Positions 424 to 19,766 of a stretch of 26,470 nt of DNA are shown one piece after another. Made by a program: the position numbers and the translations under genes. The notes beneath the pieces are model-generated. The model did no database searches. It saw only the letters and a list, made by a program, of their open reading frames with translations, and was not told the origin of the DNA. The stretch is taken from the NCBI GenBank assembly GCA_041178085.1, contig JBEGVZ010000001.1, forward strand, positions 1 through 26,470, in the 5' to 3' direction. This DNA is from Pseudomonadota bacterium. Lineage in GTDB: Bacteria; Bdellovibrionota_B; Oligoflexia; Oligoflexales; RGVZ01. Within the stretch, counting starts at the first letter, position 1; each line of letters starts with the position of its first letter.

Positions 424-2097
424 ATGCATCGATTGAATGCAGGACATGGCTTTATTTTCATCCTTGCGGTGGTGTTCGCCCACGGCAAGCCATTGTTTGC
501 CGGGGTGCCTTCCGGTGAAAGTGTCGTCGTTCCCAAACTTCGTGAATTTTGTCAGTCGTGTCATGCCGTCGGTGACGTCCGGTTTATCCGCAGTGCCGAT
601 GATCACGTTGTTTGGGTGGAATTGTTCAAAGGTAAAGCCCCGAAGAGTGGCAAGGTGTGGGCGGATGCCATCGTGGATGTTCTCAGCTGGCCATCGAATG
701 ATCCGCCCGATTTTGAATCCCCGATTGAACCGGGGCGCGACTGGATGCCGAAGGGATCAAAGCGCCTTGCTCTTGCTACGGACACTGTGAACGGCGAACT
801 GACAAGGCACATGCTTTTGCGGGAGCTGCGCAGGGGTGTTGCAGCAGATGGCAGAGAAGGCTTCTATCCGCGTTGTGCTCCTTCGCCCAAACTGGTCGAT
901 CCGGCTCTTGGCTTGCGTAAAGGCTACATGGACTTTTTCAATCCTGCCGAACTTGCCAGCGTCAAGGAATTGTTGCCGGTGCTGTCGGATGCGACGCTCG
1001 ATCAAGTCATGCGCGGCGCTGAGACGATGTGGTACGACGAAGAGACGATGGCTTTCTCCTACCAGGACAGCGAAGAGACAGTCACAGGAGTCCGCGCCAA
1101 CTGTGTCGGTCGGGAAGTGGGTGAGCGGAACGCAGACAATCCGGGAATCTTCAAGCTGACGAAATACTTTGGCGCTGACTACCGGTTTCGTGAACCCTTC
1201 CGGAAGGCGGCAGGCACCAATGATGTTGAGAATGTGAAGGTGGTTAACTTCTGGCTTCCTCCACGCGACAAGGATGGAAATGTCATTCCCGTCCGTTACT
1301 GGAAGACGGGCAGCCGGAGTCGCTGGCGCTGGGCGTTCCCGGTCGATACGGTGTTCGGTGAAGTCTTGATGCAGCGGGATTCTGCGGGGAAGCTACACGT
1401 TTTCGAAGTTCGTACGCGAAAGCGCTACTTGCAAGGCTGGGCAGTGAACATGTTCCGTCCTTTCCGGACGGCGCAGGAGATGGCTGTCGCTGTTCGTTCC
1501 TTGCGCCCGAATTGGTTGATCGATCCTAATCTTGTGCAGCTGGTCCAACACCTTGATGACCCGGGCACCCTGCGTAGCCACAGCATGAAATCGGTCCCTT
1601 TTGGACGCATTTTCCCTGAGATCAAGGGTGCCATTGACGAGATTCCGGCGATTGCGGATGAAGGGCTGGTGAAAGCTTTGCTACACCGGAAATTTGTTTC
1701 CGTGGAAGGATCCGTGTGGAAGGAGAACCCTGGCTTGTTGACCTACGCGCCTGGGTCAGCCGGGGAATTCTCGATCGTCCCGCGCGGCTACGAAATGGGT
1801 TTGATTCCAGTCAATGATGAATCCTGCTCTCGCTGTCACAACGAGACAGGGCGTCGCCTTGGCCAGATTGAGGGAGACATCGTCCTTTACGGCGAAGTCT
1901 GGGGCGAGGATCAGATTTTCACTTGGCACCTGTTTGAGCCAAACAGGAATATTTTTGATGTGTATGACGAGTCGGATGGAAGCCGCGTCGTTAATCCACG
2001 CATGGTCCAGGCAGGGTTGGTGTCGCAAGGTCAGCCCGATACCGGATCAAATGTGTGGCGCGCGCTGCCATCTGCTTATGATAAGGCGGCCCCCTGA
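424..2097 (+). CDS. Secreted putative di-haem c-type cytochrome domain protein
   Basis: GGAGG RBS at 413-417; hydrophobic N-terminal signal (FIFILAVVFA...LFA); haem-binding motifs CQSCH (550-564) and CSRCH (1825-1839); 557 aa. Confidence 0.7.
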   Translation: MHRLNAGHGFIFILAVVFAHGKPLFAGVPSGESVVVPKLREFCQSCHAVGDVRFIRSADDHVVWVELFKGKAPKSGKVWADAIVDVLSWPSNDPPDFESPIEPGRDWMPKGSKRLALATDTVNGELTRHMLLRELRRGVAADGREGFYPRCAPSPKLVDPALGLRKGYMDFFNPAELASVKELLPVLSDATLDQVMRGAETMWYDEETMAFSYQDSEETVTGVRANCVGREVGERNADNPGIFKLTKYFGADYRFREPFRKAAGTNDVENVKVVNFWLPPRDKDGNVIPVRYWKTGSRSRWRWAFPVDTVFGEVLMQRDSAGKLHVFEVRTRKRYLQGWAVNMFRPFRTAQEMAVAVRSLRPNWLIDPNLVQLVQHLDDPGTLRSHSMKSVPFGRIFPEIKGAIDEIPAIADEGLVKALLHRKFVSVEGSVWKENPGLLTYAPGSAGEFSIVPRGYEMGLIPVNDESCSRCHNETGRRLGQIEGDIVLYGEVWGEDQIFTWHLFEPNRNIFDVYDESDGSRVVNPRMVQAGLVSQGQPDTGSNVWRALPSAYDKAAP

Positions 2098-2112: not shown

Positions 2113-3141
2113 TCAGAAGGAGCGGCTGCCACCCAGGGCAACATGCCAGATTTTCCTGGGTTCACTCGTCTGGTAGACGCCCGCAGAGACCAGAACTTCG
2201 TCGGTGTCCTCCAGCCAATACTCACGCCACATCCGGTAGCGCATGGTGGCATATATCTGGTCGCTGCCTAGTGTCCGGCGCTCACCATTGGTTGCGCGCG
2301 GCACTTCTGTTTCCCGGTACCAGCGATATCCCGGGGCCAGGATCGTGCGCTCACCTGTCTTCTGGTGCCACTCGATAAATGCGGAATCAGCGCTTACAGC
2401 GCCGGTCAGGGTGACCGGCCGGATCTCGCCAGAATTCTTGAACCGGCTGACTCCGAAGTGCACGGCTGCCATGAGCGGAGCGATGAACTGACGACCTTCA
2501 ATGTTTCCAGTGGTCGCCGTGGGACGGTCTTGCCGGAGGTTCATGCTCAACTTGCCCCGCCAAAGGAACGACGGTGTCGCAAGATGGAGCCAGCTGATTC
2601 CAGTGCTCGTCCCGCCTATGCGTTCAGGAGTCAATATGCGCTTGCCATCAACGTCTGTGACATCCAGCCCGGTGGTGTTGATGAATGTGCGCTGCGCATC
2701 CAGTGTCCACCTGGTCGTTTGCTGGCCTGTCCAGATCGATGCAGACACCCCGACCCAGCGGCTATAGGTACGCAATTCTCCGTCTGCTGATGGTGAGGCT
2801 GATCCCAGCCACCCGGCAGTGGGAGAAACAGTGAGGGGAGACAGCCCATCTTCCGAATTCGATAGTTCGTAATCAAAACTTCCCGAGACGGCCGTTTCGT
2901 TTCCAGCCAGTGGTGAATCCGGCTCAGATTTTCCGATCGTGTGACGGCGGGAAATTCCGATGCGGGTCCCGGTTGAGGGGCGGATATTTGTCGTCTCAAG
3001 AAGGGCGCTGGTCGAGCCGTCCGAGTACAGGGCAGCGACTGCCTCGAATTTTCGGTTGCGAGGTAGTTCATCTTGTCCGTGAGCTGGCAGTGTGGCGATG
3101 ACTGGCATCAAGGCAATCGCAGTCATGATGGGCTTCGTCAT
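2113..3141 (-). CDS. DUF3570-like outer-membrane beta-barrel protein
   Basis: Signal peptide from ATG 3141 (MTKPIMTAIALMPVIATLPAHG); amphipathic beta-strand pattern; C-terminal Phe (VALGGSRSF); directly follows a DUF4266-like gene and a TlpA gene, the known neighbourhood of DUF3570. Confidence 0.6.
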   Translation of the reverse strand: MTKPIMTAIALMPVIATLPAHGQDELPRNRKFEAVAALYSDGSTSALLETTNIRPSTGTRIGISRRHTIGKSEPDSPLAGNETAVSGSFDYELSNSEDGLSPLTVSPTAGWLGSASPSADGELRTYSRWVGVSASIWTGQQTTRWTLDAQRTFINTTGLDVTDVDGKRILTPERIGGTSTGISWLHLATPSFLWRGKLSMNLRQDRPTATTGNIEGRQFIAPLMAAVHFGVSRFKNSGEIRPVTLTGAVSADSAFIEWHQKTGERTILAPGYRWYRETEVPRATNGERRTLGSDQIYATMRYRMWREYWLEDTDEVLVSAGVYQTSEPRKIWHVALGGSRSF

Positions 3142-3143
3142 GT

Positions 3144-3368
3144 TTACTTTCCGCAAGTCGGGCAGGAAGTTCCTGCGCTTGCGCCGCTACCACTGGCGCC
3201 TTTTTCGTTAAGGCGTGCAGGCTCACCGAGGGTCGCACCAGCAAGGCCAGGGTCCTTTGCCGGGTCCATCAACGGGTCCAGGATTTGCGCTTTCTTGAAT
3301 TTTACGTCCGGGTTGACGCACCCCGAAAGGAGGGCGCCCGCCGCCAGCAGGATAGGCATCATTTTCAC
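3144..3368 (-). CDS. DUF4266-like small lipoprotein with C-terminal CxxC
   Basis: Lipobox LLSGC; ILDPLMD segment resembling the DUF4266 LADPxM motif; Gly/Ser-rich tail ending SCPTCGK; purine-rich RBS upstream of the GTG start. Confidence 0.65.
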   Translation of the reverse strand: MKMMPILLAAGALLSGCVNPDVKFKKAQILDPLMDPAKDPGLAGATLGEPARLNEKGASGSGASAGTSCPTCGK

Positions 3369-3430
3369 GCGGGTTTCCTTTCCCTTCCGGATGCATTTGC
3401 CTCCGGTCTCGTGGATGATTTTACAATGGT

Positions 3431-3943
3431 TCAGTGTGCCTGGGAAATTTGCCTGAAAAGTCGTTCAAATTCCACGGGTGAGCCATGCCCGAGCAACTGC
3501 CCGGCGACGCTGCCGTCGCGGTTGATGAACAGGGTCGCCGGAACAGCCTTGATATTCAGGCTTTCGGCAAGTTTCTGCCTGGTGTCGACAAACGCTGCAG
3601 CAGTCAGCCTTTCTGCGAGGGGCCCTGCAGGTTTCAGATAATTCCGCGCAGCAGCCGGATCTTCGTCAAGACTTATGTTGATGAAGCCGACTTTAAGATC
3701 ATTGGTGTCGAGCTTCTTGATCGAGGACTCCATGGCAGAACGGCAGCCGACACACCAGGATGCCCAGAACTGAACGATGAGCGGCTGGCCCGTGGGTATG
3801 CCAGCCGCCTTGTTTTCTGTTTGTGCCGCCAATGCAACAGGTGCTGCCTTTGCAAACTCGTCATGGAAGCGGGGTGCGTTTCCGGCGATCGCATTGGTGG
3901 CCAAAAATGCGATGGCGATGAAGGTCGAAATCCGGAGAATCAT
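3431..3943 (-). CDS. TlpA/ResA-family thiol-disulfide oxidoreductase (exported)
   Basis: Signal peptide (..TNAIA); FWASWCVGC active site (CVGC at 3743-3754); INISLDED and IKAVPATLFINRDG cis-Pro motifs. Confidence 0.9.
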   Translation of the reverse strand: MILRISTFIAIAFLATNAIAGNAPRFHDEFAKAAPVALAAQTENKAAGIPTGQPLIVQFWASWCVGCRSAMESSIKKLDTNDLKVGFINISLDEDPAAARNYLKPAGPLAERLTAAAFVDTRQKLAESLNIKAVPATLFINRDGSVAGQLLGHGSPVEFERLFRQISQAH

Positions 3944-3971
3944 CTAGTCGCCCCTTTTCAAGTTTTTTCGC

Positions 3972-4565
3972 TCAGTTGCTGGAAGCTAGCGTCCGCAGCG
4001 CGGACAACACGGCGCTGTTCGGGTGGGGCAGGTTGGTGAACATCCCCCGGCCATTCTGGCCCAGGACCACGATCACATTGCGATCAGGTTTCGAAGGGTC
4101 ATTCTGGAGTGACAACCAGAGGCTGCTACGCTCGTCGTGAGCTCGCAGCGAAGCCGGCGCCCAGGTCCCCATGAATCCTGCGAAGTCCTGATCCTGGAAG
4201 TCCTCAAGGAAGTCCGTGAAGACGACGACATGCGCGACGCTGTTGCCACCAGCGGACTGTAAAGAGGAAGTGAATTCACGGGCGTCTGCCTGGCATGTGT
4301 TGCAGGTCACGCCTGCAAACTGGAATATGGCGGCTTTTTTTCCGGTCGCGGCAAGTGCTGCCTGAAGAGACATGCTGCGCCCCTGGTAGTTGATTCGCCA
4401 TGATGATGCCGGCAAGTCTTGAATTTGATTCCCGGGCTGAAGCCTGCCGCCACTTTGGATCGCCTGGCCAGGCTGTTGTTTCGCAGGTTCTGGCTGTGCA
4501 GAGCTGGCGCAACCGCCAAGTGTGGTTGCCAGCAAGAAGGGAATGACTGCAAGTGCGGTCTTCAT
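3972..4565 (-). CDS. Thioredoxin-fold lipoprotein (CNTC)
   Basis: Likely ATG at 4565 with AGGAG RBS at 4575-4579; lipobox TLGGC; IFQFAGVTCNTCQADA redoxin-like strand-CxxC-helix (4293-4304). Confidence 0.7.
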   Translation of the reverse strand: MKTALAVIPFLLATTLGGCASSAQPEPAKQQPGQAIQSGGRLQPGNQIQDLPASSWRINYQGRSMSLQAALAATGKKAAIFQFAGVTCNTCQADAREFTSSLQSAGGNSVAHVVVFTDFLEDFQDQDFAGFMGTWAPASLRAHDERSSLWLSLQNDPSKPDRNVIVVLGQNGRGMFTNLPHPNSAVLSALRTLASSN

Positions 4566-4593
4566 GGGTTTGGTCTCCTGATGCTTCTTGTTG

Positions 4594-4609
4594 AGCAAGG
4601 TTCGTGCCG
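4594..4609 (-). promoter_or_regulatory. Sigma-54 (RpoN) -24/-12 promoter for the leftward redox operon
   Basis: The minus strand reads CGGCACGAACCTTGCT, matching the YGGCACG-N4-TTGCW consensus with exact GG-N10-GC spacing. The predicted start (~4583) lies just upstream of the RBS and ATG at 4565. Confidence 0.75.
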
Positions 4610-4850: not shown

Positions 4851-4903
4851 TATGCCGTGGTATCTCGGAAAGGCAGGTTGTTGCTGTGATTCGTAATCCT
4901 TTG

Positions 4904-5836
4904 ATGAACCGCTCTGTCTTCATGTTTGCCCTGGCGATCCTGCAGGGTGCTTGTATGGGTCCGCGTGGCGGGCTGGGTGCGCCGGGGTCCGCTCGCCGGG
5001 CTTCGCTCACCTCCATCGACGTGAACCTACCCGATGCATCGATGTTGGAGGCGCGTGACCAGAGAGTCCGCCAACTCATCAACGATCAAAATTTCGGTTC
5101 AAGGATCGTGGTGGAACCCTCAGACCCCACTTGTGTCGCCCCAACACGAATCGATGAGGTTTCCAAATTCGAAGCTTCGCTTCGCCTTGGCGTCTCCATC
5201 AAGCAGGGTTGCGACTACCTGGTGACCGTAGAACTTGGCCGGACAGGCGCCGCCGGTCGGATGATGGACGCGATGTTTCGTAACGACCCCCCGTTGGCGA
5301 TAAAGCGTTCGGACATCCAGGGCAAGCCGACCTTCCAGGCCAATATCGTTTTGAAGGTCGTCACCAACCAGCAACAGGATCAGCAAAACGTACCTTCAAG
5401 ACCTGCGTTCCCGGCAGAAAAAGATTCCGAATTCCTGGACGCCCAAGGCAACACTGTTCGTTTGTCAGAGATCTTCCGCGGTGAATACCTTCTGCTTGAT
5501 TTCTCTCAGCCAGGATGTAGCGCTTGCATAAGCATGGCCGAGGAACTGACAACGGATCAGGAGTTCATGCGTGCTTTCGCATTGGAAGGTTCAAAGTGCT
5601 CCATGGCAACCGTGGTCCCGCAAAGCCAGCGTAGCGGGTGGCTGTCGATGTTCTCCGCCACTGACATGATCGGTCGTCATTCCGTGTTTCCGGCAGGTGG
5701 ATTTTCAGAAGTCGCGGGTAAATTTGGTGAGCGGATCACGGCAACCCCGACGTTCCTTCTGATTGATCGTTCAGGCAACGTAGTCGGTAAGAGCGCTGGC
5801 GGGTTGCCGGACAATGCCAGACAGCTTTGCCGGTGA
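4904..5836 (+). CDS. Lipoprotein with N-terminal unknown domain and C-terminal TlpA-like thioredoxin domain (CSAC)
   Basis: Lipobox LQGAC; Gln-rich linker; LLLDFSQPGCSACISMA (CSAC 5516-5527); ITATPTFLLIDRSG cis-Pro motif. Start at ATG 4904 or GTG 4886. Confidence 0.75.
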   Translation: MNRSVFMFALAILQGACMGPRGGLGAPGSARRASLTSIDVNLPDASMLEARDQRVRQLINDQNFGSRIVVEPSDPTCVAPTRIDEVSKFEASLRLGVSIKQGCDYLVTVELGRTGAAGRMMDAMFRNDPPLAIKRSDIQGKPTFQANIVLKVVTNQQQDQQNVPSRPAFPAEKDSEFLDAQGNTVRLSEIFRGEYLLLDFSQPGCSACISMAEELTTDQEFMRAFALEGSKCSMATVVPQSQRSGWLSMFSATDMIGRHSVFPAGGFSEVAGKFGERITATPTFLLIDRSGNVVGKSAGGLPDNARQLCR

Positions 5837-7369
5837 TCAGCTGCCCAGCAAAGCCGTGGTCTGGACAACCAGGCTGTAGCCACGCATGGACCCGCGGTCG
5901 GTGACCGGCCTGGACACAAGCTCGCTGCCAGTCGCTTTATCACTCGTGCCAGTCGTTTGAAGTTCATCGTAGTTGGCAGTGTAACTGGCAATCACAGGCA
6001 CATCGATCCATGCCGATATAACGTATCCATCAATCGTCGTTTTAAGGTCCTCACGGGAATTTGACTTTCTGGGCTTGCGCCAGTTTGCGTTAAAGGAAGC
6101 TCCTGCGATTGCTGACAACCTGGTGCTTCTCAGCACGTAATTGTCGAGCAGGGCTGTCCGCGTGGTTGAGTTTTCCTGACTATCCGTGACGACCAGATCC
6201 TTTTCGAAAGCGCTACCGATGGCGCGACCGGTCGCGTCGATGTAACCAACACCTGCAAGCAGGGCTGGTGTGCCAGCCGCGAATTCACCTAGCTGGTAAC
6301 TACCCAGGACGGTGATTCCAGTGCCGTTGTAGTCCACGTCAATTCTGCGTAACTGGCCGGGATTGACCGGCTCGTAAGGACCAAGCACCAAATCCAGCGT
6401 GGAGCTGAACTCCCATTTTCCGCGACCGGCCACATAACCGAGGCTGATTCTTCCCGCTTTGCCCCGGACGTCGTGAATGCCATCTGTTTCCAGTTCGTGC
6501 AAGGCCAGGCCAAGGCCGAAAGACCACGAGGAGTGCTTCCCCGTTACGGGGGCTGTGCTCGCTGCCTGGGCATTCTTGCCGACAAGGGTGGATGCAGTTA
6601 AGGCTATAACCACCGCCAGCGCAGCCGCCGGAGCTGAAGTTCCCCTGCGTCCCTCCAGCCACCGGATGATCACGATCGAAAGCTCGAACAAGGCATAAAG
6701 AGGCACTGCCATGACGAATTGCGACACAGGGTCTGGCCCCGGAGTCAGCAGTGCGGCAATGATCAGCAATACAACGAGTGTTGCCCGGCGCTGTGACGAG
6801 AGCATCTTCGAGTCAACGATGCCAAGCATTGACAGGAGGATCAGAATCAATGGCGCTTCAAACACGAGTCCGAATCCTGCAAACATCAAGACGAGAAGGT
6901 TGATGTAGTCCGTCACAGTGATGATCGGCACGCCAACTTCAAGGCCCATCTGGATCAAGAATCCCAGCGTAAAAGGCAACGCGACGAAGTAACAGAAGGA
7001 CACTCCCGCCAGAAACAGCACGACAGACCCCCAGATGAACGGGAGAACGTATTTGCGTTCAGACGGATAGAGTCCAGGCTCGAAGAATTTCCAGAATTCC
7101 CTCAGCCAGAACGGGCTGGTGATGATCACAGCGCCCATGAAAGCCACCTTCATGCCGGTGAACATCACATCCATCGGGCCGGTGAAATGAAGCGCAGGAA
7201 CACCCGGGGGCAGAGCGTTCACGAGTGGGGTTTTCAGGTAGTTCAAGAGTGCCTGGGACTTGAACACCAGGATCAAGAACGTCACCATCAGCACCGTCAT
7301 GGACCGGGTCAATCGCCGGCGAAGTTCATCCAGGTGTTGAAGCAGTGGCATGGCTTTTTCCAGGTTCAC
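5837..7369 (-). CDS. tatC: Twin-arginine translocase subunit TatC fused to a C-terminal beta-strand-rich exported domain
   Basis: MPLLQHLDELRRRL, FFEPGLYPSERK, FGLVFEAP and LLTPGPDPVSQ...PLYALFE TatC motifs in aa 1-240. The frame continues without a stop for another 270 aa. Confidence 0.9.
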   Translation of the reverse strand: MNLEKAMPLLQHLDELRRRLTRSMTVLMVTFLILVFKSQALLNYLKTPLVNALPPGVPALHFTGPMDVMFTGMKVAFMGAVIITSPFWLREFWKFFEPGLYPSERKYVLPFIWGSVVLFLAGVSFCYFVALPFTLGFLIQMGLEVGVPIITVTDYINLLVLMFAGFGLVFEAPLILILLSMLGIVDSKMLSSQRRATLVVLLIIAALLTPGPDPVSQFVMAVPLYALFELSIVIIRWLEGRRGTSAPAAALAVVIALTASTLVGKNAQAASTAPVTGKHSSWSFGLGLALHELETDGIHDVRGKAGRISLGYVAGRGKWEFSSTLDLVLGPYEPVNPGQLRRIDVDYNGTGITVLGSYQLGEFAAGTPALLAGVGYIDATGRAIGSAFEKDLVVTDSQENSTTRTALLDNYVLRSTRLSAIAGASFNANWRKPRKSNSREDLKTTIDGYVISAWIDVPVIASYTANYDELQTTGTSDKATGSELVSRPVTDRGSMRGYSLVVQTTALLGS

Positions 7370-7370
7370 G

Positions 7371-10259
7371 CTAGTGTGCCTCCAACCAGTCTGCGCCGAC
7401 GCCGATTTCGACTTTCAATGGTACTGACAGTTCCAGCGCAGTTTCCATGGCATTGCGGATGATTTGTGTGGACCGCGCTGTTTCGCTTGCCGGCCCCTCA
7501 AAGACGAGTTCATCGTGGACTTGCAACAGAAGGCGCGTCGCAAGTCCGGCTTCCGCAAGTTCCCGCTCAACCCGGATCATTGCCAACTTGATGAGGTCCG
7601 CTGCACTCCCCTGGATTGGCGAATTGACGGCGATGTTTTCTGCGTTGACCTGGGCAAGGCGGTCGCTGGAATGCAGGTCAGGCACAGGTCGCCTGCGGCC
7701 GGTCATGGTCTGGGTGTAGCCGTTGCTCCGTGCGCGTGCGATCGCCTGCGCGATGTAGTCCCGGATCCCGGGGTAACCAGCAAAGTATTTCTCGATGAAT
7801 TCTTTTGCCTCGGCCATGCTGACGCCGGTCTCACGCGCCAGGCGCTGCGGCCCCATGCCATAGATGATTCCAAAGTTGATCGCCTTGGCCCGGGAACGCA
7901 ATGTGGCATCTACATCCGCGGGTGCGACGCCGAAGATGCGTGCAGCTGTGGCCGTGTGGATGTCCTCGTTGTTGCGAAAAGCCCCGGCAAGTGCAGATTC
8001 GTTCGCAACGTGGGCAAGGATGCGCAGTTCGATCTGGGAATAGTCTGCCGAGATGATCACGCTGTCCGGTGAACCGGCGCGGAATGCCTTGCGGATCTCC
8101 CGGCCCTGCGGCGTGCGGATCGGGATGTTCTGCAGGTTTGGATCGGATGAGCTGAGGCGTCCCGTTGCTGTCCCGGTCTGGTGAAAGCTGGTGTGGATGC
8201 GGTTGGTGGACGGCTTGATCAACTGGGGCAACGTGTCGACATAGGTATTTTTCAACTTGGTGACTGAGCGATACTCAAGGATTGCTGATGGCAGCGGGTG
8301 TTCGCTCAGCGCCTCCAGAACGGACACATCGGTTGAGAATCCGGACTTGGTTTTCTTGAGGCGCTTGACGCCAGTGACTTCATGGACTTTCAGTTTTTCA
8401 AACAGGATATGTTGTAGCTGTTTTGTCGAGTTTATGTTGAAGGTCTCGCCGGCGAGTTCGTGGATTTTCTTTTCCAGTCTTTGCGCCTCACCTGCCAGGC
8501 GTTCAGAAATGACGGACAGGGTTTCCGCGTCGACGAAAACGCCGCGCTGCTCCATCGCAGCAAGCACCGGTACAAGCGGCATGTCGACGTCGTGGAGGAC
8601 TTTATCCAGCCCTGCCTTGGCAATCTCTCGTGTGAAATGCAGGTATAGCCGGAAGGTGACTTCGGCGTCTTCGATCGCATACTCCGATAGTTTGTCCAGC
8701 GGGACATCAGCCATCGGAGTTTCCCCGCGCAGGCCAATCAGGTCAGAGGTCGGGATTTTCATGATGCCAAGGTAACGAAGCGCGCATGCATCCAGTCCGT
8801 GTTCACGGCCGATCGAATCCAGCAACCAGCTGCAAATCATCGTGTCGGTGAAAGGGCCCTGCGGCTTGATGCCGGCGTTGTGCAGCATCTGAAGATCGAA
8901 CTTCAGGTTGTGCGCCACTTTCATCTGTCCTGGCTTTTCCAGCCACGACTTCAGCGCGGCTTTGACTTCCGTGATGGAAAGCCCGCCGTCAAGGTGCTTG
9001 TCGATCAGGGGGATGTACCAGCCCTTGCCGGGGGCAGTGCTGGCACTGAGTCCGATCGGGCGTGACTCCACCACGTCCAGGCCAGTGGTTTCCGTGTCAA
9101 AGCAGGCGACGGGTGCTTTTTCAATCTCTGCCATTGCCGCGCGAAGGGTTTCCGGTGTGTTTGCCAGCTGGTACCCGCTGCGGGAAAGTTCTTCCGCCTG
9201 TCCCGGTGACGATGGTGCGGTCCCCGGCTGTTCGCTGGGTTCGAGGGTCAGAGCTGACCTGGCGGGAGTAGCTTGCGCTTTCCCGCGTGCTGCTTTCATG
9301 TCGGCCTGGACGCGTTGGGAAAGGGTGCGGAATTCAAGCTCATCGAACAGTTCAAGCAAGGACGGGTTTGCGGTTGCCGTGTCTGGATCGTACTTCATGT
9401 CGTCCAGCGCGTGCTCAAGGTTGCAGTCGATCTTTATGCGCAGGAGCTCCCGCGACAGGAAGGCTGCTTCCTTTGATGCGCGCAGGGATTCACGCTGTTT
9501 CTCGTTCTTGATCTCATCGAGGTGGGCATAAATTCCCTCGAGGCTGCCGAACTGGCCGATCAACTTGGCGGCGCCCTTGTCGCCGATTCCGTGGACTCCC
9601 GGGACGTTGTCCGCAGTGTCGCCGATCAGCGCCAGCGCATCGACCACATGGTCCGGTTTGCACTGGAACTTTTCGTGGACGCCTTCAATGCCGATCACCT
9701 GCGCAGGTTCCGCTTTTTTCGGCGAGTAGAGGTACACGTGGTGATTGATCAGCTGCATGAAGTCCTTGTCGCCGGAGACGATGTAGCAGGTCAGGTCAGG
9801 GCCTGCATTTTGCTTCACCAGGCTGCCAATCAAATCGTCAGCTTCCACGCCCGGTTCTCTTAAAAGCTTGCAGCCAAGGGCTTCGAAAAGCTTGAACAAG
9901 TAGGGAAGCTGCCGTGCCAAGTCCTCTGGCATCTCGGTCCGGTTGGCTTTGTAGAGCGGGTACATCTTGTGCCGGAAGGTCGGCTCCTTGGTGTCCGTGG
10001 CAACCACCAGGTAATCCGGACGCTCTTCGTCGATAAGTTTGAGCAGGAACACGGCGCTGCCGTAGACGGCGGAAGTCGGGATCCCGGCGGAAGTGGTCAG
10101 AGGACGCACTCCAAACGCATGAAAGCTGCGGAATGCGAGGGCCATGGCATCGATCACAAACAAGCGTCCGGGTTTCTTCAGGACTTGCGTGTCTGTCCGG
10201 TTTTTGTCAATCATCATGGGGCCTTTGTCGTGTCCTGGTCGCCGGTTCTCATTTGCCAT
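7371..10259 (-). CDS. polA: DNA polymerase I
   Basis: 5'-3' exonuclease (EADDLIG, SGDKD, GDTADNVPGV), 3'-5' exonuclease (FDTETTG, HNLKFD) and polymerase motifs (ADYSQIELR, KAINFGIIYG, QVHDELV). The start could be slightly downstream (~10217). Confidence 0.98.
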   Translation of the reverse strand: MANENRRPGHDKGPMMIDKNRTDTQVLKKPGRLFVIDAMALAFRSFHAFGVRPLTTSAGIPTSAVYGSAVFLLKLIDEERPDYLVVATDTKEPTFRHKMYPLYKANRTEMPEDLARQLPYLFKLFEALGCKLLREPGVEADDLIGSLVKQNAGPDLTCYIVSGDKDFMQLINHHVYLYSPKKAEPAQVIGIEGVHEKFQCKPDHVVDALALIGDTADNVPGVHGIGDKGAAKLIGQFGSLEGIYAHLDEIKNEKQRESLRASKEAAFLSRELLRIKIDCNLEHALDDMKYDPDTATANPSLLELFDELEFRTLSQRVQADMKAARGKAQATPARSALTLEPSEQPGTAPSSPGQAEELSRSGYQLANTPETLRAAMAEIEKAPVACFDTETTGLDVVESRPIGLSASTAPGKGWYIPLIDKHLDGGLSITEVKAALKSWLEKPGQMKVAHNLKFDLQMLHNAGIKPQGPFTDTMICSWLLDSIGREHGLDACALRYLGIMKIPTSDLIGLRGETPMADVPLDKLSEYAIEDAEVTFRLYLHFTREIAKAGLDKVLHDVDMPLVPVLAAMEQRGVFVDAETLSVISERLAGEAQRLEKKIHELAGETFNINSTKQLQHILFEKLKVHEVTGVKRLKKTKSGFSTDVSVLEALSEHPLPSAILEYRSVTKLKNTYVDTLPQLIKPSTNRIHTSFHQTGTATGRLSSSDPNLQNIPIRTPQGREIRKAFRAGSPDSVIISADYSQIELRILAHVANESALAGAFRNNEDIHTATAARIFGVAPADVDATLRSRAKAINFGIIYGMGPQRLARETGVSMAEAKEFIEKYFAGYPGIRDYIAQAIARARSNGYTQTMTGRRRPVPDLHSSDRLAQVNAENIAVNSPIQGSAADLIKLAMIRVERELAEAGLATRLLLQVHDELVFEGPASETARSTQIIRNAMETALELSVPLKVEIGVGADWLEAH

Positions 10260-11644: not shown

Positions 11645-12136
11645 GTGTCCGTAAAAGATCGTCCACGCTTCTGGCTCATGAAAACTGAGCCAGAAGTTTT
11701 TTCTTTTGATGACTTGATGAAGGCTCCCGGCAAGACCACCTGCTGGGAAGGCGTCCGCAATTATCAGGCGCGGAACATGATGCGCGATGACTTCAAAGTA
11801 GGTGACGAAGTTGTCATCTACCATTCCAACGCCAATCCGCCCGGTGTTGCAGGTTTCGCGCGGGTGGTTCGTGAGGCCTATCCCGACCCTGCGGCATTGG
11901 ACCCGAAAAGCGATTATTTCGACGAAAAGTCAAAGGCTGACGGCAAGTCCCGATGGGTGATGGTCGACGTTCAGGCTGTGGCACCGGCGAAAAAACTGCT
12001 CAGCCTGGAAGAAATTCGCAAGACTTCTGGTTTGGAGGACATGTTGCTTTTGCGTAAAGGACAACGCCTCTCGATCCAGCCAGTCACGGCGGCAGAATGG
12101 ACAATCTTGAGCCGCCTGGCAGGTGTTAAAGCCTGA
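11645..12136 (+). CDS. EVE domain-containing protein (Thy28-like)
   Basis: WLMKTEPEVFSFDDL, WEGVRNYQARN, YHSN and RLSIQPV signature motifs. Confidence 0.93.
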   Translation: MSVKDRPRFWLMKTEPEVFSFDDLMKAPGKTTCWEGVRNYQARNMMRDDFKVGDEVVIYHSNANPPGVAGFARVVREAYPDPAALDPKSDYFDEKSKADGKSRWVMVDVQAVAPAKKLLSLEEIRKTSGLEDMLLLRKGQRLSIQPVTAAEWTILSRLAGVKA

Positions 12137-12752
12137 GTTCCAGCCCCAGACTTAGCGTTGTCATGGCTTTCATGGCGATGGCCGCATCGGCTGGCGATGC
12201 CCCGGAGCCGCTGCCATCTGGTTTCAATGGTTCGTTAAGGGCCAGACCGGGGCGATTTTCCCTCGTGCCTTCAACATACCGCTGGGTCGTTGTGCTCGGG
12301 CTGGCTCCGCGTCCCAGTGGCTGAAGTCGTCCAATACCCAATTGCAGCGCGAGTGATTCGTTGACCGGGTAAGGAGCTGTGAAGCCCACATGCATCACCG
12401 GGATGCCCCCCTGCTGGCTGTGCCAGAAGGTTGTATCGCTGGTCCTGGTTTCTTCGACCATGGCAGTCCCTGCCATCAAGTAAAACCAGCGGCTGCTGAT
12501 GCCGGCCAGGACAGCGTGGGTATTGCTCCTGGATACCGCCCGGGTGTCGTTGCCCAGCTTTCGACCAGTGCTGCTGATGGTCAGGACCTCTGCCCCACCG
12601 AACTCTGCCACGCGCCCCCCGAGGCTCAAGCCAAGGCCAGGGGTTCCGCCTACTCCCGTGGGTAAAGCCGCGACGGGGGCAAAATTCAGCACAAGCGCCG
12701 CCTGGCAAAGGCGTTGGCGGCTGATTTTCGTTCTCAATATGGCCACCGGCAT
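12126..12752 (-). CDS. Hypothetical protein, possible small outer-membrane beta-barrel
   Basis: G-rich RBS ~8 nt upstream of the ATG; basic then hydrophobic N-terminus; alternating strand patterns (LGLSLGGR, LALQLGIGR, TTLSLGLELRL). Confidence 0.5.
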   Translation of the reverse strand: MPVAILRTKISRQRLCQAALVLNFAPVAALPTGVGGTPGLGLSLGGRVAEFGGAEVLTISSTGRKLGNDTRAVSRSNTHAVLAGISSRWFYLMAGTAMVEETRTSDTTFWHSQQGGIPVMHVGFTAPYPVNESLALQLGIGRLQPLGRGASPSTTTQRYVEGTRENRPGLALNEPLKPDGSGSGASPADAAIAMKAMTTLSLGLELRL

Positions 12753-13280: not shown

Positions 13281-13322
13281 CACCCCTTGACCACGATGAA
13301 AGTCAAGGGGTGTTTTGCTTTT
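13281..13322 (+). terminator. Rho-independent terminator
   Basis: Perfect 11-bp stem CACCCCTTGAC (13281-13291) / GTCAAGGGGTG (13302-13312), 10-nt loop, followed by TTTTGCTTTT. Confidence 0.85.
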
Positions 13323-13388
13323 ATATACGGTGACTTGAGGCATTTTTCGGGCGGGGATATAGTTTTAGGACACACCAGGAGAACCAAG

Positions 13389-14306
13389 ATGGGTTTGATG
13401 TCATCATTCAGGTCGTCGCTACGGGCCTGCGTTGCAGCTGCGATTGCCGGAGTTGTTTTGTTCACGGCCGGTCTTTCCGTCAGCGACCAATCCTTCGCCA
13501 AGGAAACCCCTGGCCAGGTTGGCTCCAAGCAGACGGGATCCGGCGATGGGACTGCAGTCGACATAGCTGGCGTTGGCGAAGCGGATCAGGGTGCCGGAAC
13601 TTCGATCTTCGGTCGTGCGTTGCGTGCCGGGCCTGTCGTGTTCATGGTTCTCTTGACCCTGGTCGGCCTGTCCGTCCTGACCTGGGCTGCACTGGTGGCC
13701 AAATTTTGGCATCTGCGTCGCATTTCGCGGGCAAGCGATTCGTTTGTGAAAAGTTTCTGGGACAGCCGGTCGTTGAATGACCTGAATTCCCGCCTTTCAG
13801 AGCACCCCTACAGTCCAGCGCGGGAAGTTTTCCGTAGTGGGTATGCGGAGCTGGTGCGAGGCACGCAGCTCCGTGAACATTCCCAGTCCGGGGAAATGGC
13901 GGTGGGAGCAGCCATCGAGAACCTCAGCCGCGCCCTTCAGAAGGCTAAGATGTTTGAGCGCCGCCGCCTGGAAAACTTCCAGTCCCTTCTTGCGACCAGC
14001 GCTTCGGCTAGCCCGTTCATCGGTTTGTTCGGCACGGTGTGGGGCATCATGGGCTCCTTCGAGGGCATCGCCCAGACGGGCAGCGCCAGCCTGGCAGCAG
14101 TCGCGCCTGGAATTTCTGAGGCTTTGATTGCCACCGCCTTTGGTCTTGCGGCGGCGATCCCCGCCGTTGTGGGTTTCAACTTTTTCAACGCATTGATCCG
14201 CGTGCAGCTGGTCAATCTGGACGGTTTTTGCGCGGATTTCCTGAATATCGTGGAACGCTACCTGGTCAGTGATAAAAAGCAGCAGGGGCAAGTCCATCAC
14301 GTTTGA
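13389..14306 (+). CDS. tolQ: TolQ (MotA/TolQ/ExbB proton channel) with N-terminal extension
   Basis: AGGAG RBS before ATG 13389; SPFIGLFGTVWGIM and VAPGISEALIATAFGLAAAIPAV motifs; first gene of tolQRAB. Confidence 0.92.
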   Translation: MGLMSSFRSSLRACVAAAIAGVVLFTAGLSVSDQSFAKETPGQVGSKQTGSGDGTAVDIAGVGEADQGAGTSIFGRALRAGPVVFMVLLTLVGLSVLTWAALVAKFWHLRRISRASDSFVKSFWDSRSLNDLNSRLSEHPYSPAREVFRSGYAELVRGTQLREHSQSGEMAVGAAIENLSRALQKAKMFERRRLENFQSLLATSASASPFIGLFGTVWGIMGSFEGIAQTGSASLAAVAPGISEALIATAFGLAAAIPAVVGFNFFNALIRVQLVNLDGFCADFLNIVERYLVSDKKQQGQVHHV

Positions 14307-14336
14307 GGCAGATGCAACCTGCGACTGAGGGTCCAC

Positions 14337-14768
14337 ATGGCTTTTGGAAAACTCGGACAAGACAAGAGTTTTGAGTCAGACCACAGTGACCTGGCGGAAA
14401 TCAATATCATCCCCCTGGTTGACGTGATGCTGGTGCTCCTCATCATTTTCATGGTGACGGCACCCTTGTCCATCGGTGGGATCAAGGTCGAACTCCCTCA
14501 TGCGGCAGCGAAGAGCACGGGGATCGACGAAAACCGTGTTGTCCTTAGCATCAATGCCCAGGGCGACTACTATCTGGACCGGGTTCAAGTTCCCGCGCCG
14601 GCTCTCACGGAGCGCTTCAAGGTGCTGTACGAAGGCCGGGACAAGAAAGAACTCTATATCCGTGCTGATCGCGAAGTGGCTTACGGCAAGGTTGTTGAGG
14701 CCATGAGCGCGGCCAAGGGGGCGGGTGTCCTGAAGATCGGGATGCTCACCCAGGCACAGAACAAATGA
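14337..14768 (+). CDS. tolR: TolR (ExbD/TolR family)
   Basis: EINIIPLVDVMLVLLIIFMVTAP and IRADREVAYG motifs. Confidence 0.93.
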   Translation: MAFGKLGQDKSFESDHSDLAEINIIPLVDVMLVLLIIFMVTAPLSIGGIKVELPHAAAKSTGIDENRVVLSINAQGDYYLDRVQVPAPALTERFKVLYEGRDKKELYIRADREVAYGKVVEAMSAAKGAGVLKIGMLTQAQNK

Positions 14769-15682
14769 CGGTTAGCGCCCGAGCCAGCAGCAGTCTGTTC
14801 CACAACAAGATGACCCGGATGGTCGCTTTCCTGAGGTTGGTGCGCACGCGGCTGGACAAGAAAAATGAGATGGAACTGTTCCGTCTCTTTGCCGTCGTGT
14901 CGCTGGGCATTCATTTCTTTTTCTTCCTTGCCCAGGGCATCAACCTGTTAAACCAGAGACGTCAGATTGTCGAGGACTGGGCAATTGACGCCGACTTGCT
15001 GGTCGACGCCACTTCCGGGGCGCCAAAGGATTCTGCATTGCCCGATGCGGTCAAGGCGGAGGAGGCAAAGGTCAGTGAGCGCATGCTGCCCCAGCTGCCC
15101 AAACAGTTTGCCGTTGATAACCAGGAAGCCCCCAAGGATAAGACCTTCACCGAACAGGATGAGAAGGCTGAAGCGGAGAAAAAAGTCGAAGATGCCCGCG
15201 ACCTCAGCCGTACCAAGGACGAGGCCGAGGAAAAAAACCGCCTGAAAAAGGATGACGCCCTGCGTCGCCTTGCCCTGGAGAAACTCCGCCAGGAAAACAA
15301 GTTGGCAAAGAAAAACGAGGCGGCCTCTACGGATTCACCGCGTTTGCAGGATGATTCGAAGGCTGTCGCTGCGACAAATACGGGGGCAGTCCAGGGCACG
15401 CTGTCTGCTTCAGAAGCAAACCGCTACAGAGCCAGGTTGCAGTCAGCGATCCGGCGCAATTACTCCATTCCTGAAACGCTGAAATTCAGGACAGTTTCGC
15501 CTGTTACCCTGGCCATCGAGATCAGTGAAAGTGGTCATCTGGTATCTTCAAAGGTTGAGGAATCCTCAGGAGATACGTATTTTGATGAGCTGGCCTTGCA
15601 AGCGGCTAAGGCTTCGGTGCCATTGCCACCGCCGCCGGCGGCCCTTGTGAACCAGAAGATACTGTTCAAGTTCAATCCGTGA
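14765..15682 (+). CDS. tolA: TolA/TonB-like energy transducer
   Basis: ATGA overlap with tolR; TM segment with SxxxH (VVSLGIH); charged helical middle; C-terminal SSGDTYFDELALQA..PLPPPP domain. Start codon uncertain. Confidence 0.85.
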   Translation: MTVSARASSSLFHNKMTRMVAFLRLVRTRLDKKNEMELFRLFAVVSLGIHFFFFLAQGINLLNQRRQIVEDWAIDADLLVDATSGAPKDSALPDAVKAEEAKVSERMLPQLPKQFAVDNQEAPKDKTFTEQDEKAEAEKKVEDARDLSRTKDEAEEKNRLKKDDALRRLALEKLRQENKLAKKNEAASTDSPRLQDDSKAVAATNTGAVQGTLSASEANRYRARLQSAIRRNYSIPETLKFRTVSPVTLAIEISESGHLVSSKVEESSGDTYFDELALQAAKASVPLPPPPAALVNQKILFKFNP

Positions 15683-15692
15683 GGGGACTGGA

Positions 15693-17102
15693 ATGAAAAA
15701 ACTCTTCATGCATTGCCTTGCCGGGCTGATGGTCTGGTTGTCTTCCGCCCAGATGTTTGCGGTGACTGGCCAGCCCTTGATTGTGAACATCGACAATCCT
15801 AATTTTCGCAAATTGAATGTCGCAGTTCCTGATTTCCTGCTGGCTGAGTCGGCAGACCGGGAAACGGCAGAGGTTGCGAAGCGTGGTGCCGCGGAACTGG
15901 TGCGCTTGCTCAACTTTTCTGCGTTGTTCAGCGTTCGCTCGCCTGATGTTTTCTCCGGCGTACTTTCCGCCAAGGGAGTCGTTCAGTGGCGGCTTGGCCA
16001 GCAAGACCTGGACGGGGTGGATTTGCCGCAGTGGCGCGCTGTCGGGATTGAGTCGCTGACCCTGGGCGAAGTTACCAGAGACAACGATACCTGGACTTTC
16101 AATTTCCGGACGATCGATACCGGCAAGGGCCAGCTCCTTGTGGGCAAGCGATACTCCAAGGTTGCCAAGTCACAGGTGGTTCCTGTGGTCAGACGATATG
16201 CGGACCAGATCCTGAAGGCATACACTGGAAAACAAGGCATTTTTTCCAGCCGCCTGACCTTTGTTGGTCGCCGATCGCGGAATGCCGCCAAACAGATTTT
16301 CATATCTGATTTCGATGGCAGCAACGTCAAGCAGATCACGAATTCGAATGCACCTCACCTGTCTCCTTCGTGGAGCCGCGATGGCAGGTACGTCACTTTC
16401 ACATCCTTTGAGGACGGTCCCGCTGAAATTTTCATGTATGACACCAAGACTGGCCAGAAGAAGAAGATGACCAGCGGTCCTGGGCTCAGCAGTGGCAGCA
16501 ACTGGGGGCCGGATGATCGCTACATCGCTTTCACTGGTGCCCACAACGGAAATTCAGAAATTTACGTCATGAGTCCCAAGGGTCGTGATCGCAAGATCCT
16601 GATCGCCGGGGATGGCCTTGATGTCGACCCGACGTTTTCCCCCGACGGGAAATGGATGGCGTTTGTCTCCGGGCGCTTTGGCAACCCCCATATTTTCCGG
16701 GCATCACTCGAGTGGAATGACGACAAGGTCCGCGTCAATGGTGACAAGCGACTGACCTACGCTGGCTGGTACAATGCCACGCCCGCCTGGTCGCCGGAGT
16801 CAGATAAACTGGCCTTTGCTGGATACGACAAGGACATCAACCGCTTCGATATGTTCATGATGAACCCCGACGGGACCCAGATGGAGCGCTTGACCTTGCG
16901 CGCCGGTGACAACGAACGGCCATCATGGTCCCCCAATGGACAACTGATCATCTTCCAGAGTAGCCGAGGGCTGAATCTTGAGGATATCAAGGGGACTCCC
17001 CGGTTGTTTATCATGAACCGGGACGGTAGCAACCAACGGCTTCTGGACACAGGGCTACACGAAGCACAGCAACCAGCCTGGGGACCACAAGTTGAGGACT
17101 GA
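15693..17102 (+). CDS. tolB: TolB (Tol-Pal beta-propeller)
   Basis: Signal peptide; IAVPDF-like N-domain (VAVPDF); GIFSSRLTFV; PD40 repeats (SPSWSRDG, PTFSPDG, PAWSPES, PSWSPNG). Confidence 0.93.
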   Translation: MKKLFMHCLAGLMVWLSSAQMFAVTGQPLIVNIDNPNFRKLNVAVPDFLLAESADRETAEVAKRGAAELVRLLNFSALFSVRSPDVFSGVLSAKGVVQWRLGQQDLDGVDLPQWRAVGIESLTLGEVTRDNDTWTFNFRTIDTGKGQLLVGKRYSKVAKSQVVPVVRRYADQILKAYTGKQGIFSSRLTFVGRRSRNAAKQIFISDFDGSNVKQITNSNAPHLSPSWSRDGRYVTFTSFEDGPAEIFMYDTKTGQKKKMTSGPGLSSGSNWGPDDRYIAFTGAHNGNSEIYVMSPKGRDRKILIAGDGLDVDPTFSPDGKWMAFVSGRFGNPHIFRASLEWNDDKVRVNGDKRLTYAGWYNATPAWSPESDKLAFAGYDKDINRFDMFMMNPDGTQMERLTLRAGDNERPSWSPNGQLIIFQSSRGLNLEDIKGTPRLFIMNRDGSNQRLLDTGLHEAQQPAWGPQVED

Positions 17103-17139
17103 AGCGCGATTTTCTTCTGTGTTTTCCGGGATCGATGCC

Positions 17140-17511
17140 ATGCACAAACCTTTTTTTCTGGCTGCTGGTTGGTTTTTTGTTTGTGTTGGCATTATCGGGA
17201 TTTTCCTGCCTTTGCTCCCGACAACCCCTTTTCTGCTGCTGGCCGCATGGTGTTTTGGCAAGAGCAGTGAGCGCGTCCACTCCTGGTTGATGAATCATCC
17301 GAGGCTTGGTCCACCGGTGCGGGACTGGCAGGATCATGGTGTGATCAATCAAAACGCGAAATGGTTGGCGACGGCCATGATGGTGGCTGCCATGTCGTTT
17401 CCGCTTCTGATCGTAAAGGTGCCCCAATGGGCTCGCTGGACTTCGGCCATCACCATGGCCTGCGTCCTGACTTTCATCTGGAGCCGCCCCTCTAAACCAC
17501 GTTCCAGCTAA
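17140..17511 (+). CDS. YbaN/DUF454 family inner membrane protein
   Basis: GIIGIFLPLLPTTPFLLLAAWCF..SSER.H.WL..HP signature; likely ATG 17140. Confidence 0.92.
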   Translation: MHKPFFLAAGWFFVCVGIIGIFLPLLPTTPFLLLAAWCFGKSSERVHSWLMNHPRLGPPVRDWQDHGVINQNAKWLATAMMVAAMSFPLLIVKVPQWARWTSAITMACVLTFIWSRPSKPRSS

Positions 17512-18106
17512 TTTTGCGGGACGTCAGTTCTTCCTTGAGTTGCGCCGTGTTGCGGTAATGGATCCCAGGGATTCCGTTCCTGAGGGCGGCGTCGATGTTT
17601 TCCTTCACGTCGTCAATAAAAAGGCATTTCCCGGCAGGACACATGGCGGCTTTTACCGCGCGCTGATAGATGCGGTCGTCAGGCTTGCATGCACCCACCT
17701 GATAAGAAAGGACCAGCTCGTCAAAAAGCTGCGGAAAGTCGTAGCGGGCGCGGATGTATTCAAAGTGGTCTTCGTTGACGTTTGAAAGCAGGACCAGCCG
17801 GTAGCCTGCCGATTTGATGCCGGCGGCAAGGTTCACCATGTCGGGCTTGGGCCAAAATATGTCACAGGCCGCGTCGACCACCTTGCTGGTGTCCAGCTTG
17901 CAACCCAGTCCGGCCTCCATCCCCGCGATCAAATCATCACGGGAGATCTGGCCGGCTTCATAGCGCATTTCCAGGCCGCTGGAAAAAAGGACGTCGAATA
18001 TTTGACTGGCAGGCTTCCCGCAAAAAGCGCTGATTTGCTCACAGGCTTTTTCGTGGCTAAAGTTGATGAGTACATTACCCATGTCAAAGATCACGGTGCT
18101 GGTCAT
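17492..18106 (-). CDS. HAD-superfamily phosphatase (YihX-like)
   Basis: Motif I VIFDMGNVL, motif II LLSN, motif III KPD..IY, motif IV FIDD..ENI. Confidence 0.92.
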   Translation of the reverse strand: MTSTVIFDMGNVLINFSHEKACEQISAFCGKPASQIFDVLFSSGLEMRYEAGQISRDDLIAGMEAGLGCKLDTSKVVDAACDIFWPKPDMVNLAAGIKSAGYRLVLLSNVNEDHFEYIRARYDFPQLFDELVLSYQVGACKPDDRIYQRAVKAAMCPAGKCLFIDDVKENIDAALRNGIPGIHYRNTAQLKEELTSRKISWNVV

Positions 18107-19766
18107 GCGAAGCAAGTCCCACAAGAAGGTCAGACAAAAGGCCCATTCGACTTCACGGGACACACGTTACCGCGCTTCGGTCGTCGTTTGCCACAATGAA
18201 TCCCTGCTCACTGTGCGTTTGCGGGATCCGGTCAGCGGAATTGTGCGAAACTTCCTCCCCGGAGGTGCGGTGGAGGCCAGTGAATCCGCGCCCGATGCTG
18301 CCACACGGGAGTGTCTGGAGGAAACGGGTCATCAGGTCAGGATCGACCCGGAATCCAATTTGCGAAAGTCTTACCTGTTCCATTGGGCCGGTCTTGATGT
18401 GCCTTGTGTCACAGAATTCTTCCGTGCCTACCTGGCCAGGCCCTTTGCTGCACCCGCCAAGATCTCCGATGACCCCGAATTGAATCTCGGGCTTGAATGG
18501 GTTCCTTTGTCGAAAGTAACGGAGGTTCTGGGCTTTCACCGGGAAATCCTTGATGGTGTTGAGTGCATTTTGAGCCAACCTCCGAAACGGGTGTTGTGTG
18601 CATTTTCTGCATTCAAGGGAACCTTGTCGGCGCGGGATGCTTGCGATGCTGCGGTACAAGCCATCCAGTCCGCCGGACATGTCGCAAGTAGCTTGCCGAT
18701 TGCTGACGGTGGGCGTGGCTCGATGGATTTCTGGCAGGCGATTGCAGCAAAGTCAGGCGCCCAGCTAACGTTGTTGGATATCCGGGTGCAAGACCCGATT
18801 GGCCGTGAGGTATCCGCAAGGGTTGCCATGCGAAGGTCAAAAGCAGAGGCAACGCTCTTCATCGAATCCGCTGATTGTCTTGGGATGCACCTCGTGGGCG
18901 CACCTGAACCAGCCACTGCAATGATCGCAAACAGTTACGGTTTCGGGATGTTGCTGCGAGACCTTGCGTGTCGTTTTCCTGCAGGAACCCGCTGCGTGGT
19001 CGGGCTTGGTGATTCCGCTGTGAGTGATTGTGGGGCCGGGATGTTGCAGGCGCTCGGTTTTGGCTTGCGGCTCAAGTCCGGCGAAGTGCTTGATGCTTCG
19101 CAATTCAATACCGGACTGCTACGTGACATCGCTGCGATCGTCCCACCACCTGCCGGCTCCCCTGAATTCCGTGACTTGAAAGCATTGCGGCGATTTCAAT
19201 GGACCGTATTGTGTGATGTCTTGAATCCCTTGTGTGGGCCAAAGGGGGCCATGAGGGTTTTCTCCCCGCAAAAGGGTGCGCTGCCTGAACAGGTCAACCT
19301 GCTGGCGGCCGGGGCGCGAAACGTGGCGAAGTTGTTTGCCAATTCGGGTGCGAATCGTGACTGGGCGAAGTTGGAATCCGGCGGCGCATCCGGGGGCGTC
19401 GCTGCCGCGATGGCCTGGGCTTTGCGTGCCCGCTTGAAGCCAGGAGCACGCTGGTTTCTGGATGTCATGAAGTTTCGCACGTTCCTGAAAGATCAGGACA
19501 TTTTCTTCACTGGTGAGGGATCTTCTGACGCCCAGTCCCCTGCCGGGAAGGCCCCGTTTGTGTTCTTGTCAGCAGCGCAGGCTAAGGGTCTAACAACATG
19601 CCTCGTATCTGGCAGGGTGCAGCTTTCTGCGTGGCCGCGCAAGATGCGCGGCGAGCTTGCGATTGCCCGTGCCTGTGGCCTTGAGCCAGATGCAAGGACA
19701 GCCTTGTGCCATGCGACTTATGCCAGCCTGGTGGAGATCATCACTGGCCAAGCCAGTGGCGAATGA
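18105..19766 (+). CDS. Nudix hydrolase - glycerate kinase (GlxK family) fusion protein
   Basis: Nudix box GGAVEASESAPDAATRECLEETG (18261-18329). From ~18585 glycerate-kinase motifs follow: FKGTLSA, PIADGG, CDVLNPLCGPKGA..VFSPQKGA, TGEG..D.QS..GKAP. Confidence 0.85.
   Translation: MRSKSHKKVRQKAHSTSRDTRYRASVVVCHNESLLTVRLRDPVSGIVRNFLPGGAVEASESAPDAATRECLEETGHQVRIDPESNLRKSYLFHWAGLDVPCVTEFFRAYLARPFAAPAKISDDPELNLGLEWVPLSKVTEVLGFHREILDGVECILSQPPKRVLCAFSAFKGTLSARDACDAAVQAIQSAGHVASSLPIADGGRGSMDFWQAIAAKSGAQLTLLDIRVQDPIGREVSARVAMRRSKAEATLFIESADCLGMHLVGAPEPATAMIANSYGFGMLLRDLACRFPAGTRCVVGLGDSAVSDCGAGMLQALGFGLRLKSGEVLDASQFNTGLLRDIAAIVPPPAGSPEFRDLKALRRFQWTVLCDVLNPLCGPKGAMRVFSPQKGALPEQVNLLAAGARNVAKLFANSGANRDWAKLESGGASGGVAAAMAWALRARLKPGARWFLDVMKFRTFLKDQDIFFTGEGSSDAQSPAGKAPFVFLSAAQAKGLTTCLVSGRVQLSAWPRKMRGELAIARACGLEPDARTALCHATYASLVEIITGQASGE

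Follow-up and report, generated by a model that had tools for sequence, protein, structure and literature searches.

The locus analyzed here raises the question of whether a single reading frame, in which a complete TatC runs without a stop into a second domain, is a genuine gene and, if so, which proteins it yields. The frame (5837..7369, minus strand) lies in a window of 26,470 nucleotides, by which we mean the whole stretch of DNA that was analyzed. It starts with GTG, has an ATG at codon 7 as a possible alternative start, and stays open over 510 codons without an internal stop, which confirms the continuity reported in the initial annotation. According to PF00902, TIGR00945, and the alignment with E. 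coli TatC, residues 1–239 (6653..7369, minus strand) are TatC with six transmembrane helices. They are followed by a basic cytoplasmic tail (aa 240–247; 6629..6652, minus strand) with RR in its sequence at aa 241–242 (6649-6644), by a hydrophobic core (aa 248–263; 6581..6628, minus strand), and by a short segment (aa 264–269; 6563..6580, minus strand) that ends with A-Q-A at aa 267–269 (6571-6563). The remaining 241 residues (aa 270–510; 5840..6562, minus strand) form the second domain. The coordinates initially assigned to the RR, the core, the A-Q-A, and the 241 residues after it agree with ours.

The fusion is real, genus-wide, and of a single origin. The same open frame, at 59–63% identity, was found in all six other genomes of the genus, in one of which (G006) it leaves the contig close to its end. 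A search for long relatives of TatC returned 16 proteins, 11 of which (501–559 aa; 73–86% identical to this TatC) have the same fusion, as judged by their linkers or sequences. In the TatC tree, which was midpoint-rooted and from which eight split loci were left out, the 16 fused TatC rows formed one clade with support of 100/100. An assembly error across 6560-6670, a possibility raised in the initial annotation, or a recent loss of the stop codon in one strain only could have produced the same picture: the genome assembly consists of 136 contigs, and tatC and the second gene are in frame in three of the 20 loci with separate genes, so one error could mimic a fusion. However, this junction was bridged without an indel by contigs from all four sequencing runs (four studies; one of these runs is possibly the source of the window itself). 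Of the 56 strain differences inside the ORF, 36 were considered: 25 were synonymous, 11 were missense, and none created a stop. The frame is open in seven of seven genus genomes at about 60% identity, and the 11 database proteins of the same design also argue against an artefact. The genus-wide open frame and the contigs of the runs refute this explanation, the probability of which is practically negligible.

The gene appears to belong to an operon with polA (DNA polymerase I; 7371..10259, minus strand), the stop of which is separated from the start of the fused gene by 1 nt. A ribosome-binding-like GGAGG (7379..7383, minus strand) was recognized in the sequence of the final codons of polA, 9 nt 5′ of this start, and the same arrangement is common to all seven genus genomes. 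At the other end, the stop of the fused gene adjoins gaplessly the stop of a convergent thioredoxin-like gene (4886-5836, plus strand), with the palindrome TGATCA at 5834-5839; thus, there is no space for a terminator. This neighbor is part of a cluster of exported proteins (2113-4598, minus strand; 4886-5836, plus strand; 12126-12752, minus strand) that includes two thioredoxin-like proteins and several without a Pfam match; the products of 2113-3156 and 12126-12752 have alternating, barrel-like strands. Elsewhere in the window, the gene at 424-2097 (plus strand) encodes a 557-aa protein that begins like a signal peptide, has two CxxCH motifs far apart from each other, and matches no Pfam family above the cut-off; it is likely an exported di-haem c protein. 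A tolQ-tolR-tolA/tonB-like-tolB series at 13287-17511 (plus strand) is followed by a DUF454 gene instead of pal, and a single frame of 567 aa at 18063-19766 (plus strand) combines a NUDIX domain (aa 35–161) with a glycerate kinase (aa 177–535).

The TatC half matched PF00902 at aa 11–223 (E 1e-61; 208.7 bits against a cut-off of 25.1) and TIGR00945 above its curated cut-off (180.9 against 132.7), and E. coli TatC could be aligned to aa 2–241 of the fused protein. The substrate-binding residues L9, H12, E15, F95, L100, Y101, and E104 correspond to L9, H12, E15, F94, L99, Y100, and E103 of E. coli TatC; roles of such residues in signal-peptide binding are described in PMC13323110. Since all of these residues are present and invariant in six of six aligned fusions, the TatC half looks functional. 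The fused gene is the sole tatC of this genome (G000), and genes for a 62-aa TatA-like and a 107-aa TatB-like protein were located on other contigs. The tat genes are completely dispersed; judged visually from the translated sequences, the gene behind tatA resembles an ArsA-like ATPase (L089:1489-2591), and the one behind tatB is lysA-like (L090:1492-3056). The fused TatC clade has a long leading branch (0.8) in the tree. T-P-G-P-D-P occurs in nearly all fused TatCs, while P0164 retains the T-P-P-D-P of most split relatives. TatC may have been altered near the time of the fusion.

The segment between the two halves has the composition of a signal peptide, with a basic n-region that is provided by the cytoplasmic tail of TatC, a hydrophobic h-region, and a polar c-region with small residues at −3/−1 (aa 240–269). 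The A-Q-A is the predicted signal peptidase I site, of the form [A/L]-x-A, and the fused chain would be cut after A269. A helix was modeled at 248–261 in the full-length structure, albeit with low confidence. Among eight distinct fusions, the linker varies from 41 to 70 residues, and its mean pairwise identity is 0.24, versus 0.81 for TatC and 0.53 for the second domain. Nevertheless, 16 of 16 distinct fused linkers have retained a hydrophobic core with [A/L]-x-A no more than 15 residues behind it, a count that overstates their independence because the linkers are kin. A narrower window of 12 residues gave 7/8 and then 13/16, and was widened to 15 after G006 failed. In this genome, with crude control gene calls (first ATG, 2007 ORFs), the same test was positive for 283 of 1057 internal membrane segments, 20 of 79 last membrane segments with long tails, and 123 of 338 N-terminal cores; among stand-alone homologues of the second domain it was positive for 48 of 93. 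The fused linkers are rich in Ala, and shuffling single linkers restored the motif in 17–84% of trials; the product over eight linkers, 0.003, is an overstatement. The hydropathy of this seventh segment (KD19 1.57–2.24) overlaps that of TatC's own helices (1.52–2.34) and therefore does not tell a signal from an anchor.

The twin arginine immediately 5′ of the core might suggest an internal signal that directs the second domain to Tat, as in class IV Tat substrates, and internal Tat signals after polytopic domains do exist according to PMC13673990. However, G-R-R-G-T-S does not fit Z-R-R-x-hydrophobic-hydrophobic, the motif given in this source for the n/h boundary, and RR-x-hydrophobic-hydrophobic was found in none of the 16 fused linkers and none of the 93 stand-alone homologues. 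Most relatives have NR or KR instead; only R242 is invariant among the fusions, and the RR pair is not conserved. Outer-membrane barrels, moreover, travel unfolded. We consider Tat export very improbable; the RR is not a Tat motif, and the initial remark that Sec is at least as likely as Tat stands. An N-terminal hydrophobic core was recognized, by a threshold, in 93 of 121 full-length stand-alone homologues; as these have such a core and none is of the twin-arginine type, the linker represents the old Sec signal peptide of the partner.

The main rival explanation is a nested gene: translation would begin in frame close to the core, as it did ancestrally, to give most of the second product, and the long product would be incidental. 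The initial annotation had excluded an in-frame ATG; this is correct for the linker, but ATG is present at M220 and GTG at V233, both in TM6 of TatC, and GTG at V253 in the core. In seven of the 11 fused DNA sequences, an ATG coincides with the beginning of the core or is next to it, and the linker of P0155, composed of Met, a basic stretch, a core, and A-S-A, resembles a complete signal peptide. On the other hand, an ATG in this position lies immediately 5′ of the core and leaves no n-region. Four of the 11 sequences (G000, G004, G006, and L091) have no ATG, GTG, or TTG from the TatC tail to the core, and G004 has no start at all from the Met of TM6 to the barrel. A promoter-like site was not found in 5500-7600, which is a weak test. 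Internal initiation as the main source is thus rated as unlikely, and the predicted cut site of the long product is the same whether or not an internal start is used.

The domain released by such a cut is predicted to be an outer-membrane protein, in accordance with the barrel-like character initially attributed to it. Its eight antiparallel strands close a transmembrane barrel, the best structural matches were the outer-membrane barrels NspA, OmpW, and OprF, and the column hydrophobicity of 131 sequences revealed a lipid-facing hydrophobic alternation in the strands. The most conserved motif of the family, with the consensus R-P-x-G-N-x-P-E-L-L-x-T-R-x-E-G (aa 433–448; 6026..6073, minus strand), forms the long turn, including a short helix, that connects strands 6 and 7 and would be periplasmic by analogy with the OmpA-type topology. 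The barrel ends with A-L-L-G-S and thus lacks the aromatic residue of a C-terminal beta-signal. This absence had been noticed initially, but it is no defect: Gly was second-last in 100 of 122 homologues and F or Y last in only three, and the trait belongs to the family, including its stand-alone members. Apart from two weak unrelated matches, 23 of 23 family members had no match in Pfam, and the barrel sequence had none in NCBIfam or the PDB. The Atlas neighbors at 0.94–0.95 are barrel clusters, yet they share only 128–139 of 256 features. Identity to NspA, OmpW, the OprF/OmpA barrel, and Thermus 3dzm was 7–12%; compared with these eight-stranded barrels, the strands of the family are longer, strands 6 and 7 are joined by a long conserved turn, and the terminal aromatic is lacking. 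It appears to be undescribed, and the eight-stranded fold gives no function for it.

Within the order, 79 of 95 genomes had a recognizable barrel; in the 36 other genomes of the phylum, it was not found. In the first search, it was the next gene after tatC, with the same orientation, in 74 of 78 carriers; in two of the other four (G007 and G015) the genes are truly apart, and in the remaining two they are on different contigs. The initial annotation had left it to comparison whether relatives keep the fusion or have two genes: of the 79 carriers, only the seven genus genomes have them fused, and the remaining 72 have two genes. G012, G063, and G064 seemed to have a fusion as well, but this proved to be false. 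In all 20 split loci examined, a candidate barrel start lies at the tatC stop or within 25 nt of it; it overlaps the stop at −4 or −1 in nine and is in frame just behind it in three. With such spacing, a single lost stop or a small frameshift would yield the fusion seen here. With a single barrel match in each fused genome, no free copy supplies the barrel. These data show that the ancestral state was two separate, tightly coupled genes and that the fusion arose in the ancestor of the genus. The linkage of the barrel to tatC is strong but need not mean that it has a role in Tat: polA is also linked to the tatC locus, and tatC persists in genomes where the barrel was not found.

Based on this analysis, we propose, with a probability of roughly three in four, that the gene encodes a two-membrane polyprotein composed of TatC, an internal signal, and an outer-membrane barrel that is released by signal peptidase I. 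The most likely products, as predicted from the sequence, are an ordinary TatC and a barrel of an unnamed family, separated by internal cleavage. In the ancestor of the genus, the tatC frame joined the next, tightly coupled gene for a Sec-exported eight-stranded barrel. During translation, SecYEG/YidC would insert the chain like a normal TatC, the C-terminus of which is cytoplasmic. The old signal peptide would then act as a seventh segment with an N-in/C-out orientation and send the barrel through Sec. After a putative cut by signal peptidase I behind A-Q-A, the freed 241-aa barrel would pass via BAM to the outer membrane. TatC, extended by the remnant seventh helix, would remain in the inner membrane and work with TatA and TatB, which are encoded elsewhere. 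This genome encodes a LepB-type peptidase and has five Omp85 matches. Type I signal peptidase cleaves AXA-like sites (PMC13673990), and preproteins left uncut stay anchored in the inner membrane (PMC9360617). The initial proposal of release by signal peptidase I past a seventh segment is supported by sequence features. The term "self-processing" was misplaced: we saw no sign of autoproteolysis, and the likely enzyme is the host LepB.

A protein that stays uncleaved, in which a seven-helix TatC would bear a beta domain in the periplasm that serves as tether, cap, or plug, has to be weighed against this proposal. TatC tolerates inserted periplasmic domains in M. xanthus and N. salsuginis (PMC13323110), hydropathy does not separate signal from anchor, and P0166, P0167, and P0168 are long TatCs that have, besides a seventh hydrophobic segment, an additional unassigned domain. 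These three proteins are 462–620 aa in length, and their C-terminal domains are possibly anchored rather than cleaved. In the present case, however, the structural matches are outer-membrane barrels, the strands have the lipid-facing alternation, the stand-alone orthologues have ordinary signal peptides, and all 16 linkers retain the cut motif. Only 14–30 residues, at most ~5–11 nm when extended, separate the core from strand 1. The periplasm is typically roughly 15–25 nm wide. An uncut chain could therefore not cross it, and this geometry supports the cut and makes the tethered plug suggested initially unlikely; overall, we regard an uncleaved protein as quite improbable.

The polyprotein reading has several implications. 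A single chain must supply both membranes; LepB would cut far inside a polytopic protein, the barrel would reach BAM even though six membrane helices precede it during export, and TatC would work with its seventh helix retained. The fusion probably does not create a new machine but is tolerated, and it fixes an already coupled pair at 1:1 synthesis. The annotation of such genes as "TatC" alone hides an outer-membrane protein, and the analysis brings to light an unnamed barrel family that is linked to tatC across most of one order.

A related layout was recognized in P0165 (1248 aa), where TatC is followed by a basic tail, a hydrophobic core with an Ala-rich end, which together resemble a signal, and LptD_2, an outer-membrane barrel protein. 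The partner is unrelated and this TatC is distant (38% identity) from that of the fusion described here, which indicates an independent event; the TatC-barrel layout thus arose at least twice, and this suggests that it arises easily. A bolder and rather unlikely possibility is that the barrel is a true partner of the Tat pathway in the order, its periplasmic turn meeting Tat-exported proteins or envelope machinery, and that the fusion was selected for 1:1 synthesis. This would explain the position of the barrel behind tatC in nearly all carriers. Together with TatC-LptD, it would cast TatC as a carrier used repeatedly for the co-translational launch of outer-membrane barrels, and the leftover seventh helix might tune TatC.

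Among described TatC variants, fused TatCs with 14 and 10 helices have been reported from haloarchaea (PMC13673990, in the passages covered), and a TatC with an inserted periplasmic domain from M. xanthus and N. salsuginis (PMC13323110, likewise in part). In these variants, the duplicated parts or inserted loops remain within the complex, and neither kind has a cleavable C-terminal outer-membrane protein. The passages covered of the former source, a 2026 Tat review, deal with internal, non-cleaved Tat signals and do not mention a TatC-barrel fusion. In the open-licence literature searched, we found no account of such a fusion or of the barrel family, in line with the initial remark that no described TatC fusion of this type was known.

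The closest counterparts are the separate genes of other genera of the order (e.g., G023, G031, G033, and G034), which encode the same two proteins in the same order and on the same strand, where the barrel carries a signal peptide of the Sec type and likewise ends with L-G-x. In these genera, tatC terminates at a stop codon and the barrel gene has a start of its own, whereas here the two proteins are one chain. To our knowledge, bacterial polyproteins cut by signal peptidase have rarely been described. The best parallel is FbcH of Bradyrhizobium japonicum, the cytochrome b-c1 precursor described by Thony-Meyer, James, and Hennecke in 1991 (PNAS 88:5001). It is reportedly one gene for two proteins, with a polytopic inner-membrane protein, an internal signal sequence, and an exported partner, and both products are said to be kept at the inner membrane. 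The fusion described here, known from its sequence, likewise combines a polytopic protein, an internal signal, and a partner with separate-gene orthologues. FbcH reportedly yields two subunits of one inner-membrane complex, whereas here the partner is a predicted outer-membrane barrel with no known complex with TatC. By this analogy, the fusion most likely works like FbcH but serves two membranes.
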